Of a DNA stretch of 64,000 nucleotides, positions 24,649 through 37,182 are shown piece by piece. The notes under the pieces are model-generated. The model worked only from the letters and a program-made list of their open reading frames with translations, was not told where the DNA came from and searched no databases. The translations under genes were made by a program, and so were the position numbers. Numbering within the stretch: the stretch's first letter is position 1; each line of letters begins with the position of its first letter. The stretch comes from Heptranchias perlo (Eukaryota): the NCBI RefSeq assembly GCF_035084215.1, contig NC_090359.1, positions 13,950,001 to 14,014,000 of the forward strand. The letters are read 5' to 3'.

Positions 24649-27382
24649 ATGGCCTCCCAAGTGTGTCAGAACTATCACAAGGAGTGTGAGGATGGTGTCA
24701 ACAAGCAGATCAATATGGAGCTCTATTCCTCCTATGTTTATCTTTCTATGGTGAGTTTTCTATCTGAGGTATTATTTCAAAATTATGGCTGTGGTGTCAT
24801 TTTAATCTGAGCAGGTAGAATTCTCTGAAAATGAATTGGCTTTGGAGTGTACCTCTGTGACCCTCCCAATTTTTTTTCTGATTTTGGTTCTGAGCTGCCA
24901 GTTATCTTCAATCTCTGTCCTCTGGTTACTGACCCACCTACCAGTGGAAACAGTTCCTCTTAATTTCCTCTATCAAAACCCTTCATATATTTTGAACACC
25001 TCCATTAAATCTCCCTTTAACTTTTTCTGTTCTAAGGAGAACAATCCCAGTTTCTCTAGTCTCCCTCATCCCTGTAGGTTGAATGTGGAAATGAAAATTA
25101 AATCCAAAAGCATTATTGCTTTCCTGTTTTCTATTACTACAACCTCTTGTCTTGTTGAGCTACTTCACAGGGAGGGACTTTCAACATATTCAGTAAAGAT
25201 CAATGAAGCAAAGTGAGATTGACTTTTAAGAAAAATGCTTTTTTTTTTTAGACACTGAGCCCCTTAATTCCAAGCACTGTGGCAGAGAATGGGTAATTTG
25301 TCTACTGTGATGTTGCTGCCATTTTGAATTGGCCATTAATGAGATCTCTGTCTGACCTGACTCTTCCATTTTATCTCTCTAGTCTTATTACTTTGACCGG
25401 GATGATGTTGCCCTGCGTCACTTTGCTGAGTTCTTCAAGGAGCAGTCACATGAGGAACGGGAGCACGCTGAGAAACTGCTGAAATTCCAGAATCGGCGTG
25501 GGGGCCGAATCATCTTGGAGGACATTAAGGTTCGGTTCAGCAAACTGAAGAATTGCCTTGGTTTTGTGAAAAGTGGACTAGTTTGGTCTTGCTCAATAGA
25601 TTTTCAATTGAGTTGTCTGGAGGAGGATTAATATTATAAAAATGGATCCTCAAAGTAGGAGATTTCAGGCTCTAATTTAAGTGAGAAATTAGAAGTAACC
25701 TTGTGACACCAGCAAAACTGTGTGGAGCAGGAGGCAGAGTTGGGATCAAATAGATCAACTTTGAGTAGATCATGACAATTAGTGCTAATGCTCTGTAATT
25801 GCAAATAGTGGCATAGTGAGCTCTGAAGAGCAAAAATTGAGGGAGCAAGTGGATGATTTTGATGGTCGATGCAGTTTAATGAAGTAGTCCACATCAGATG
25901 GCAGTATGAGCAAAGGGATTAGGGAGTCTCGAGGACAAATGTCAAGTTAGCTTGTAGGTGGAATAAAAGACTAATTGGGTTCATCCCGAGGCACAGAATT
26001 TAAAAGCAAGGAAGTGTTAGTGCTAGTTAGACCTCATTGGAATGATCTTTCTTGGGATACCTGAAAGCATATACTGCTGTGAATGAAGTGCAACAACTCA
26101 TTCCCAGGGTATCTCGTAGGATGAACAGACTAGTAGAACCTGTGTGGTCCCCTGGTTTGGGGAATCTAGAAGTGACATTGACTTGTGATCCTACTAATGC
26201 CTGTTATGCTCAAGGACAAGTAATTTTCAATTTCATATACTAACCACTTATTTAGTTGTTGACTAGAATAATTTTTTCTCCATTCTTAATCTTCCCTTTC
26301 CAGAAGCCAGAGCAGGATGAGTGGAGCAATGGTCTGGAGGCGATGCAGAGAGCTCTGCAGATGGAGAAGAATGTGAACCAGAGTCTGCTGGATCTGCACA
26401 AACTGTCCACTGAGAGGACAGACCCTCATGTAAGTCCTTAATGTCCATAAAAGGATTTGCATTTATATAGTTTTTCAGGATGTCTCAAAGTGCTTTACAG
26501 CAAACAAGCTATTTTTGAAGTGTAGTCACTGGTGTAATGAGGGAACAGGGCAGACAATTTGCACATGGCAAGGTCCCACCCACAGTGATGTCCAGGTAAT
26601 CTGTTAGTTGGTTAAGGGCTGCTAGCCAGGACACTGGAGAAAACTCCCCTGCTGTTATTCAAATAATGCCAGGGGTTCTTTTGCATTCAGCTGAGGGCAG
26701 ATGCAGCCTCTAGTTAACATCTCATCTGAAAGATGGCCCTTCTGACCATGCAGCATTCCCTCACTTCTGCAGTGAAGTGTGAGCTTGGATTGTGCTCCAC
26801 ACTCTGGAGTGGACTTGAATCTCTGGCACGAGTGCTACCATTGCCAACAATTGGTATGTTTGTTTTTGGGTGATTTGAAGACTCTCCGCTTAATCTGTGA
26901 TGATATTTAGAAATGTTTCTCTATCCAGTAGCTTTGTGTTGATCTTTCACAAGAGAATGCAACACTGGAATCTTCTTAAAATGGGTTAGTGCATTAAGGG
27001 TTTAGGGCACTCCAGTAAATTCTTTTAAAAATACTAATCAGTGGTTCCAACTCTAAATTAATAAATATATTTCCTCCAGGAGTAATGCAATCTGACACAC
27101 AATCCACCAATCTGTGCAGGAGTTGTACCAGTTATCCAGTCCAGAAGAGGATCATGAATAATCCCCAGGGGAGGTTAAGCTCAGACCCTGGATATTGTCT
27201 CCTCTGAGCTAATGTACTTCATATTTTTCTTCCAGTTGTGTGACTTCCTGGAGACCCACTACTTGGATGAACAAGTGAAGATGATCAAGAAGCTTGGAGA
27301 TCACATCACCAACCTGAAGAGACTGGGAGCCCCTGAGAATGGCATGGGAGTGTACCTGTTTGACAAGCACAGCCTGCATTGA
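24649..27382 (+). CDS. fth1: Ferritin heavy-chain-like, copy 1; exons 24649-24750, 25383-25529, 26304-26429, 27236-27382; 173 aa
   Basis: [51 protein letters not shown]; ferroxidase ligands present; GT-AG phase-0 introns; AATAAA at 27468. Symbol denotes family, not orthology. Confidence 0.95.
26450..26850 (-). mobile_element. DeuSINE (SacSINE1-like) in ferritin copy 1 intron 3
   Basis: Diverged homologue of 38975-39340 and 48145-48590. Confidence 0.7.
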
Positions 27383-34623: not shown

Positions 34624-37182
34624 ATGGCTTCCCAAGTGTGTCAGAACTATCACAAGGAGTGTGAGGATGGTGTCAACAAGCAATCAACATGGAGCTCTAT
34701 TCCTCCTATGTTTATCTTTCTATGGTGAGTTTTGTTTCTTTGACCCCTTCACATTGGAGATTCTAATGTGACATTACAAAATTCTGTTTTCTCCAACTCA
34801 TCTATTGCCTTTTCTCTAATCTGCACCCCCTCCCCCCAATTGATGGATGGTGAGTGTCTTTTTAAAGCTGTAATATAATGTGATTTATTGTACAGTCATT
34901 ATCAAAATGTCTCCCTCTTCCTTGCAGTAGTTGCACCGCATTCTATATCTTAAATCTCAATTGTTCACTTTCCTGGTGTCTGAGCTTTCTATTGAAGTTG
35001 TGTTTTGCAATACACTCTGCATTCAATGCCTGGGATTCATATTTCTTACCCTCTATTCTACATCTCTCCACAGTCTTTCCCCACATTCTCCTTGCAATGG
35101 GGGGGGGGGGGGTCATAATCTTAAATTAGAGCTAGTCCATTTAGGAGGTAAGTGAGGAAGCACTTTTCCCCTCAAAGGTACTGGAAATCTAGAACTCTCT
35201 CCCTTGAAAGTCTGTGGATGTTGGGGATTAATTGGTGCTTTCAAGACTGAAATCTTTTGTTGGGTCAGGGTATTGAAGGATGAGTTGATGTACAGATCCA
35301 TGTTCTAATTAAATCATTGAGTTGGCTCAAATGGCTGTATGTCCCACTTCTGTTTCTATGCTCTGAACCTTCACTTTTTAAGTACCAGCTTGTCCCTGTC
35401 TGTCTTCTCTCTCTGCCTTTGCTCTATTGGTGGTAGGGCCTTCAGCCATTTTGGTCCTACTCAGTGTAACTGTTAATCCCTTTGCCTTCCTACCTCTGTC
35501 TGTCTCTCAAAGCATTCAAATGCTAACAGTTTCTAGTCATGCAACTCTTACTGCTTGGTATCTGTTTCTCCTCTGAAATGCCTTGATGTTTAGTGTTGAA
35601 GGTGCTAAGTTAATGCTGTTTGTGGTAGTTGTAGAAAAGGGTTTGTTTCAAATTTCAGTCATGAAAAGGATGTAAGCTTTTATGTTCCTTCACTAATTTC
35701 TAGACATATAATTCAGTCTTGGGTGTGAAGATTAAAGTGAAATATTGTGTTGAGCATGTTCAAAGCTGAATTGGTAATTTTCCATTGGCCAGCTTCCCTA
35801 TTGCTAGGAGTGAGATTATCTCACTACCAGGTTAGTGAAGCAAGTCAGCCTGTGCTAGTTTTCAGAACCATCTGCCGACAAGCTCAGTGACACTTGAACC
35901 CTTGACAGAAAGCAAAATATTGAGGTTGGCTTTATGTACAATACCCATGATGATAATTCTGATACCCAACTACTTTTGATCTCACCAGTCCTATTACTTT
36001 GACCGGGATGATGTTGCCCTGCTTCACTTTGCTGAATTCTTCAAGGAGCAGTCGCATGAGGAATGGGAGCACGCTGAGAAACTGCTGAAATTCCAGAATC
36101 AGCGTGGGGGCCGAGTCATCTTGGAGGATATCAAGGTTAGATTTAATGGAGTGGCCTTCTGAATGGCTCCCCTTAAATGGACAATTTTAAATATTTCTAA
36201 AGCAATTTGTTCTAATGCTCATAATTACATAGAATGTCCAGCACAGAATCAGGACATTTAGCCCAACTGGTCTATGCTGGTGTTTATGCTCCACATGAGC
36301 TGCCTCCCACCTTCATCTTGCCCTATAATCACATCCATCTATTACTGTCTCCCTCAGTACTTCTCCTGAAAGACATTTATACTATTTGACTCGTGGTTGT
36401 GGTGGTGTAATTCTATATTCTTGGGACAATTGGTTCATGGCAACATGGACATCTGATTGCTTTTCACCCCTATTTTCCTTCAGTACTTTCTTGTGTATTT
36501 TGTTTAATCCATTAAGTGAACTGGCTGAGACCTGATTCCCTTTTCAGAAGCCAGAGCAGGATGAGTGGAGCAATGGTCTGGAGGCGATGCAGAGAGCTCT
36601 GCAGATGGAGAAGAATGTGAACCAGAGTCTGCTGGATCTGCACAAACTCTCCACTGAGAGGACAGACCCTCATGTAAGTTTTTAATGTGGGCCTTTGGGT
36701 AAGTTCGAGGTGGTGGAAATTTACTGTCCTTGAGCCTATTCAAAAGATCTTCATACCCAATAGCTTTGTTGGTGTCATGCTCAAATTTTATTGGGGAGGG
36801 GAGACAGGAAAGGGAGATTGCCCTACTGTCTGCATTAGAAGTAAATGTATCTGATCCCAGGATCGAAGCACTTAATAGAGCAAAGTTACTGTATAAAATG
36901 CATCAATCTAAAGTGCACCACTTGACTATCCTCCAGACCAAGAAGATTAAAATCCAAACCCTTGGAGAGGCTCAGATCTTCCTCCATCTCTTGCTGGACA
37001 TAACTATTTTCCATCTTTTCTTCCAGTTGTGTGACTTCCTGGAGACCCACTACTTGGATGAACAAGTGAAGATGATCAAGAAGCTTGGAGATCACATCAC
37101 CAACCTGAAGAGACTGGGAGCCCCTGAGAATGGCATGGGAGTGTACCTGTTTGACAAGCTCACCCTGGGGGAGAGTGATTGA
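34624..37182 (+). pseudogene. fth1: Ferritin heavy-chain-like, copy 3, 1-nt deletion in exon 1; exons 34624-34724, 35989-36135, 36548-36673, 37027-37182
   Basis: AAG CA- ATC (34681-34685) versus AAG CAG ATC in copies 1 and 2; also EEREH>EEWEH; TATA at 34542; other exons open. Confidence 0.85.

Follow-up and report, generated by a model that had tools for sequence, protein, structure and literature searches.

In yeast whole-genome duplicates gene conversion persists in coding sequence through selection and stops in non-coding DNA, where it is halted by substitutions and insertions (Fawcett and Innan 2011, PMC3924837). Fungal ribosomal protein paralogues carry the same signature, synonymous divergence (dS) below intron divergence, which was read as templating by complementary DNA (cDNA) (10.1101/751792). 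Tens to more than 100 million years of concerted evolution have been described for the mammalian pairs BMP8A/B, DDX19A/B and TUBG1/2 (PMC2720389) and for the L/M opsins (PMC3924837). In those pairs the introns are homogenised too, either as a requirement of the search or more than the exons. A tandem expansion of a ferritin heavy-like gene is known in one fish, the hadal snailfish, where fthl27 has 14 copies; gene conversion is not mentioned (0 occurrences) in the available passages of that paper (PMC10746142). The present analysis concerns a 64,000-nucleotide stretch of the shark Heptranchias perlo (contig NC_090359.1, positions 13,950,001 to 14,014,000 of the forward strand; hereafter the window) and its three ferritin genes. 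These are named copies A, B and C (copies 1, 2 and 3 of a preliminary description of this DNA), have four exons each on the + strand and belong to a family of at least 142 genes.

Compared with the yeast gene pairs, this is a large family of intron-containing vertebrate genes in which short exons are the exchange units and introns are shuffled. Unlike in the mammalian pairs, the introns are not homogenised. Chimeric genes, intron overhangs, unhomogenised 3' untranslated regions (UTRs) and the absence of intron loss set it apart from the fungal case and point to DNA donors, so the coding-restricted signature alone is no proof of a cDNA route. The mechanism is known and this is an unusually large case of it. 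The reading preferred here, at a probability of roughly 80%, is long-lived concerted evolution restricted to coding sequence, carried out by DNA-level exchange and held by protein selection. Repeated exchange between copies, by gene conversion and crossover, would keep the coding exons near-identical. It would persist only where protein selection preserves enough similarity, and introns and 3' UTRs would meanwhile drift into ancient lineages. The exchange is presumably homologous recombination between chromosomal copies; conversion and double crossover are indistinguishable in one assembly. The preliminary description had proposed an old duplication with ongoing exon homogenisation and had favoured a DNA route. 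Four tests uphold this core, and the unit, scale and control of the proposal were corrected.

Intron lengths in A, B and C were exact on recount (632/658/1264, 774/610/412 and 806/424/353 for introns 1 to 3), as were the exon counts. Exon 4 is identical in A and C over 133 nt, with a single difference in B at position 45. In exon 3 there is 1 nt of difference between A and C and 3 nt between A and B, all three of the latter being non-synonymous. The claim that synonymous sites are almost invariant holds for exons 3 and 4 only, as exons 1 and 2 have 7-9 synonymous differences per pair. For the whole coding sequence (CDS) dS was 0.082 (A-B), 0.084 (A-C) and 0.106 (B-C), with a non-synonymous divergence (dN) of 0.012-0.023. 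In copy C one base of exon 1 is missing between 34682 and 34683, giving a frameshift that is private to this copy; other C-type copies do not have the deletion. A second private change, a substitution, lies 6 nt from it (34682-34689). The frameshift is either a fresh lesion, making a new pseudogene, or a local assembly error.

The introns carry different repeats, as had been described (introns 1 and 3 of A, intron 2 of B and intron 2 of C). Without masking, pairwise intron scores were at or close to shuffle level. The introns had been said to lack similarity beyond the splice sites. They are indeed barely alignable, but faint homology appeared after repeat masking in three of nine pairs, in which 3/200 (intron 1, A-B), 0/200 (intron 3, A-B) and 1/200 (intron 3, A-C) shuffles matched the real score. 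Masking did not make the introns align well; this faint signal was all that it brought out. Lineage profiles detected distant homology for intron 1 (E 1e-33) and intron 3 (E 4e-8). Mismatch between the A, B and C introns was about 47-49%, against 57% for unrelated introns under forced alignment. Because of this faint similarity and the lower mismatch, the introns are very old homologues and not replacements. The promoter and 5' UTR can be aligned, at 89% over 407 bp for A-B and 71% over 417 bp for B-C.

A Pfam search of the shark's own 3.25-Gb genome (G000) returned 575 ferritin candidates, of which 150 were scored. They cluster on C43 (4.24-4.78 Mb) and on C38, C725 and C1048; these, C1-C4 and C12 are contig labels within this genome. 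The C43 array was modelled in full, together with 40 stretches of C38/C725, which gave 146 complete gene models and nine incomplete groups. Four-exon family members numbered 142, with 75 on C43 and 67 elsewhere in C38/C725 cassettes. This count is a floor, with seven of the eight C725 sites, C1048 and some C38 sites outside it; an exon 4 search gave 211 candidates, retrocopies included. Homogenisation, first proposed for three neighbours, is borne out on the scale of this family. Four genes served as outgroups: an FTH1-like gene on C12 and three divergent ones at the left end of the C43 array. The closest named proteins were from sharks, Heptranchias perlo first, and the 90% clusters of 127-180 members cover many shark species. 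One ferritin in a 90% cluster with sharks (P0123) comes from a 777-bp contig labelled Salmonella enterica and is probably contamination.

Introns 1, 2 and 3 of the family sort into 7, 8 and 8 lineages that are mutually unalignable by blastn. The 3' UTRs likewise sort into unalignable lineages. The exon had been named as the homogenised unit; since the 3' UTRs are not homogenised, the unit is the coding sequence. Synonymous divergence was set against intron divergence in 127 genes with standard exon lengths (8001 non-independent pairs; excluded were 16 models that had indels or questionable exons, as well as the three remaining outgroups). The proportion of synonymous differences (pS) was 0.017, 0.057, 0.073, 0.088 and 0.073 at intron distances of 0.013, 0.068, 0.128, 0.171 and 0.208, and 0.103 for the 4588 pairs without an alignable intron. 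Synonymous divergence is thus held at about 0.07-0.10 while introns range from 0.01 to about 0.5. In the same exons pS against three old paralogues was 0.56-0.74, so synonymous sites are free to vary, yet do not within the family.

Synonymous divergence fell from exon 1 to exon 4 (pS 0.26, 0.12, 0.055 and 0.02), and at interior sites it was 0.074, 0.087, 0.049 and 0.018. Exon-edge synonymous sites were twice as variable as inner ones (0.109 compared to 0.054, p 0.007). The 124 exon sites variable in at least two genes form a structured patchwork of haplotypes. GC-biased conversion was rejected, as the GC content of third codon positions (0.65-0.67) lies inside the outgroup range of 0.58-0.69. 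Exchange limited to neighbours was also rejected, as the distance between genes on C43 had no effect (1088 pairs, rho 0.015, permutation p 0.39). Genes with intron 2 of lineage c (e.g., C43:4434361) have a divergent exon 2 (87-90%) with amino acid changes, their other exons being homogenised. Some of these changes hit the second glutamate of the ferroxidase site, and exon 2 of lineage c is possibly a selected barrier to conversion. A divergent exon 2 type has been transferred in part to a gene whose intron 2 is of a different lineage.

The triplet in the window is a recent, rearranged cassette on C38 made from inverted pieces of the C43 array (Table 1). The introns of copy A have 98% identity to C43:4736217 and those of copy C have 98% identity to C43:4717006. 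Copy B matches three sources: C43:4741193 in the promoter (97%), C43:4730913 in intron 1 (97%) and C43:4722894 in introns 2-3 and the 3' flank (97.5-98%). It is composed of parts of three C43 genes with both joints at exons. Since chimeras are joined at exons, DNA-level exchange does occur. Across the family 20 lineage combinations of flank and introns were found, with switches at every exon. Short intronic overhangs had been taken to favour a DNA route, and in agreement with this, anchored similarity extends further into introns than in outgroups at six of six boundaries. No intron loss was found in the 146 models, the shortest family intron being 143 nt. The B-type promoter lineage of C43:4722894, shared with its 17 C38/C725 copies analysed here, cannot be aligned to the main promoter lineage, and in the C43 source an exact TATAAA is absent within 200 nt; copy B of the window has a main-lineage promoter instead.

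Seven intronless loci were examined, and all were closest to the shark array family (88-98%), showing that cDNA of the family reaches the germline. Three of the seven are 5'-truncated. Between retrocopies L004 and L006 there are differences at 67 of 497 sites, and each is 10-12% from the present CDS. The 3' UTR of L006 fits a single lineage with a score of 189, whereas the other two main lineages reach 31 and shuffles ≤34. At CDS sites 16 and 491 both retrocopies retain the base of all four outgroup genes. All 128 modern genes have the derived base, across all eight 3' lineages. Sites 36, 366 and 454 are nearly as clean. Because the 3' UTR of L006 already belongs to one lineage and the retrocopies hold ancestral bases, the derived bases crossed lineages after the lineages had parted. 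Position 31791 of the window (CDS 491) has the ancestral base in all four of the other organisms with matching contigs.

Contigs of these four organisms cover parts of the A, B and C introns, spacers and promoters. One such record has the intron 2 type of copy A, with 23 differences in 290 nt and 15 in 151 nt of the adjoining exon 2. No RNA data set was listed for this stretch; the predicted junctions were found spliced only in another organism's contigs, from a run guessed to be RNA. A quick IQ-TREE tree was made from 72 shark proteins and three outgroups with tails removed (rows of 172-180 aa only, 12 of the Pristiophorus rows). All 13 Heptranchias rows formed one group, with a support of 94 in the approximate likelihood ratio test (SH-aLRT), and carpet sharks formed another (98). 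Species labels needed 23 changes compared to 52.4 when shuffled (0/200 shuffles as low). Short and long C-terminal tails needed 18 changes compared to about 23 when shuffled, and both tails occurred in 9 of 13 species. At the protein level the genes therefore do not group by orthologue; they group by shark lineage with the tails scattered, and paralogues within a species are closer than their counterparts elsewhere, as resolved from genus to order level. The tails in 9 of 13 species, the shared intron and flank types and the retrocopy 3' UTR indirectly suggest that the duplications preceded the speciations. Divergence of the main shark groups dates to more than 200 million years ago, and the intron lineages probably predate it.

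A number of points weigh against DNA-level exchange as the main process. Exon 4 is the most uniform, and a 3' bias is expected from cDNA donors. There is no distance effect along C43, all seven intronless loci come from the same family, and selection on extended splice signals could account for the intron overhangs. At sites 129 and 189 it is the retrocopies and not the family that depart from the outgroups. Some Pristiophorus proteins have the derived residue at 491, so this change may predate Heptranchias. The protein tree comes from a quick method, its Heptranchias group is unstarred, congeneric and confamilial species are unseparated in it, and short tails could arise repeatedly. Among the C38 variants 14 of 70 match another group, compared to at most four expected, which suggests but does not prove exchange since the C38 amplification; six of the 14 belong to the CpG-decay type, and some agree with the source gene on C43. 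The uniform exon 4, the lack of a distance effect and the germline retrocopies, some truncated, would fit reverse-transcribed mRNA of highly expressed copies as the main donor, with DNA crossovers shuffling introns occasionally. The array houses Tx1 elements whose ORF1 and ORF2 frames are long and open, and cDNA was inferred for the fungal genes (10.1101/751792). Such a donor is nevertheless unlikely. The 3' UTR is the first part to be reverse-transcribed, yet 3' UTRs form unalignable lineages. No model has lost an intron, similarity enters the introns at every boundary, exons 1-3 differ little once edge sites are removed, and the exon-joined chimeras prove exchange at the DNA level. The neighbouring reverse transcriptase had been named as a testable source of cDNA templating; adjacency is no evidence, though family cDNAs do reach the germline.

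Young duplicates with introns rapidly replaced or scrambled by repeats and indels would explain the different repeats, and the C38 cassettes are in fact young (introns 0.7-1.2% apart). This explanation is very improbable and already largely refuted: masked introns differ at about half of their sites with smooth intermediate distances, the same intron and flank types occur in other organisms, and the 3' UTR of an old retrocopy is already specific to one lineage. Ferritin is conserved and dN is low, as expected if purifying selection alone acted, synonymous sites included, on genes undergoing birth and death without exchange. The same synonymous sites differ by 39-53% against outgroup ferritins, however, derived bases are fixed across all lineages, proteins group by species and the haplotypes are a patchwork, which leaves selection alone scarcely credible. 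An assembly artefact, in which polishing collapsed the exons to one consensus or copy number was inflated, is just as implausible. The 124 variable exon sites form structured haplotypes, no two of the 55 cassette copies tested share an intron haplotype, and independent shark assemblies give the same pattern at the protein level.

The ferritin domain PF00210 scored 138.7 bits in family member P0030, and the best solved relatives were ferritin middle-subunit and heavy-chain entries. The exon lengths of 102, 147 and 126 nt are also those of the C12 FTH1-like gene, and all three introns lie where they do in that gene. The family shares the domain and these positions with vertebrate H- and M-type ferritins and differs from them in having no iron-responsive element (IRE). 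The ferroxidase-centre residues, which we take to be E24, Y31, E58, E59, H62, E104 and Q138, and which were aligned to the heavy chain, were all present in 113 of 128 genes, four of these with a stop elsewhere. The remaining 15 differ, mostly at E59. Ferroxidase activity and assembly into 24-mers are predicted only. No IRE was found in the window between 23000 and 38000 at E ≤5, and the IRE loop motif was present in one of 142 family upstream regions. As a positive control, the RF00037 IRE was detected at C43:4243594 in a divergent neighbour gene (42.6 bits). The IRE-like relic of copy C also occurs in the 5' UTR of C-type genes.

Close relatives have automatic source names of the 'heavy chain B-like' and 'oocyte isoform-like' kind, and ferritin transcripts are abundant in vertebrate ovaries (PMC1488847). 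An oocyte role may be proposed from the ovary transcripts, the automatic names, the germline retrocopies and the co-amplification with ZP3. Selection for a high ferritin dose, possibly in oocytes and freed of iron control by the absence of the IRE, may keep the array.

Table 1. Coordinates of the features described in the window.
Feature	Position	Strand	Remarks
Ferritin copy A	24649..27382	+	Exons 24649-24750, 25383-25529, 26304-26429, 27236-27382; open frame, 173 aa, short tail
Ferritin copy B	29609..31828	+	Exons 29609-29710, 30369-30515, 31126-31251, 31676-31828; open frame, 175 aa; three-part chimera
Ferritin copy C	34624..37182	+	Exons 34624-34724, 35989-36135, 36548-36673, 37027-37182; frame shifted by 1-nt deletion in exon 1
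Promoter/5' UTR of A	24362..24648	+	TATAAA 83 nt upstream of ATG; no IRE
Promoter/5' UTR of B	29316..29608	+	89% identity to that of A; no IRE
IRE-like relic, 5' UTR of C	34577..34601	+	5' stem letters of the C43:4243594 IRE, altered loop; below Rfam detection
Repeat fragment, intron 1 of A	24893..25062		Matches elsewhere in window; masked for intron comparison
Repeat fragment, intron 3 of A	26513..26812		Window self-match; masked for intron comparison
Repeat fragment, intron 2 of B	30523..30808		Window self-match; masked for intron comparison
Repeat fragment, intron 2 of C	36223..36365		Window self-match; masked for intron comparison
Block copied from C43:4735884-4741306	24323..29722	+	96.5% over 5430 columns; match stops 12 nt inside intron 1 of copy B
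Block copied from C43:4721310-4711886, opposite strand	30366..39772	+	96.5% over 9483 columns; match begins 3 nt upstream of exon 2 of copy B
Tx1-clade non-LTR retrotransposon (LTR, long terminal repeat), 6.8 kb	17550..24330	-	Faces copy A head to head, its 5' end lying 319 bp upstream of the ATG; reverse transcriptase (RT) frame 17652-20942; RVT_1
ZP3-like gene copy 1	9232..12094	+	ZP-N domain; 94.9% to 41956-44807; context, outside the conversion system
ZP3-like gene copy 2	41956..44807	+	94.9% match to copy 1; context

The retrotransposon next to copy A belongs to the Tx1 clade. A full-length C43 copy had 50% identity to Xenopus TX1 ORF2 and a Tx1-clade ORF2 with endonuclease and RT. The C43 array contains 11 full-length copies, four with long ORF1 and ORF2 frames. 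Eight of the 11, which were sampled from the array and include some duplicates, end on ferritin promoter sequence. Seven of these eight end at one site about 170 nt upstream of the ATG; several variants of the promoter are represented, and copies form head-to-tail runs. The junction of the Tx1 poly(A) with the promoter was found 22 times genome-wide, 20 of them on C43, C38 and C725. On its 5' side Tx1 repeats 75-160 bp of promoter, with five head-to-tail copies on C43 (C43:4454145-4488150 and others). Exact Tx1 3' motifs numbered 707 genome-wide, and one of 20 sampled 3' ends on C1-C4 lay on a ferritin promoter. Strict target specificity is not supported, as 18 of 20 sampled distant 3' ends had unrelated flanks; the ferritin promoter is a Tx1 hotspot rather than a strict target. 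Elements are termed target-specific where more than 20% of copies are flanked by one target (PMC4494074). The target-preferring Tx1-clade elements of that paper resemble this one in clade and in tandem copies around a repeated piece of target. Their targets are small nuclear RNA genes, 5S genes, microsatellites, satellites and transposons, whereas here a target preference for a protein-gene promoter is possible and is not exclusive. Many dispersed Tx1 3' ends begin at one shared position about 190 nt from the element end (L131-L150), which suggests a short non-autonomous partner.

The two ZP3-like genes of the window align through their introns as described, over 2869 bp at 94.9%. They had been used as a contrast to the ferritin genes. 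The pair was discarded as a control, being a young segmental duplicate from a 171-site family with even divergence along its length, and so not age-matched. The 171 candidate sites, 40 of which were listed singly, lie on C38 (9.1-20.8 Mb), C725 and C1048, the same region as the ferritin cassettes. At C43:4630829, inside a ferritin intron, a Tx1 3' end is followed by ZP3 5' sequence. This junction is also present on C1 (L137) and opens the second ZP3 copy of the window at 41949.

Homogenisation confined to coding sequence is commonly read as pointing to cDNA donors, and this family separates the DNA and cDNA routes and favours DNA. It is large enough for statistics and has dated retrocopies and many intron lineages. 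Exchange units of 100-150 nt would persist for a very long time in a vertebrate, and exon or protein trees will misdate such duplications as species-specific expansions. More than 100 IRE-free ferritin genes adjoining ZP3 suggest an unstudied dosage demand, possibly egg iron loading or oxidative protection. A wider and tentative picture is of a very large oocyte-type ferritin array in sharks, free of IREs, whose individual coding exons have evolved in the manner of ribosomal DNA from a time before the main shark groups diverged. Crossovers at its exons might reshuffle ancient modules of intron and promoter. The array might host Tx1 elements that prefer ferritin promoters and might have been re-amplified here with ZP3 into a multi-megabase egg-gene amplicon. 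No paper on shark ferritin or ZP3 expansion or concerted evolution was found in the open-licence literature, and subscription journals or supplements may mention it; shark ferritin genes are already annotated in public databases.

Synteny through glycogen synthase was uninformative, as the C43 paralogue lies 4 Mb from the array. The window also contains an intronless rhodopsin-family G protein-coupled receptor frame on the minus strand (2058-3023, 321 aa, 7tm_1). Tandem repeat arrays are present at the window ends, at 41-341 and 63124-63931.

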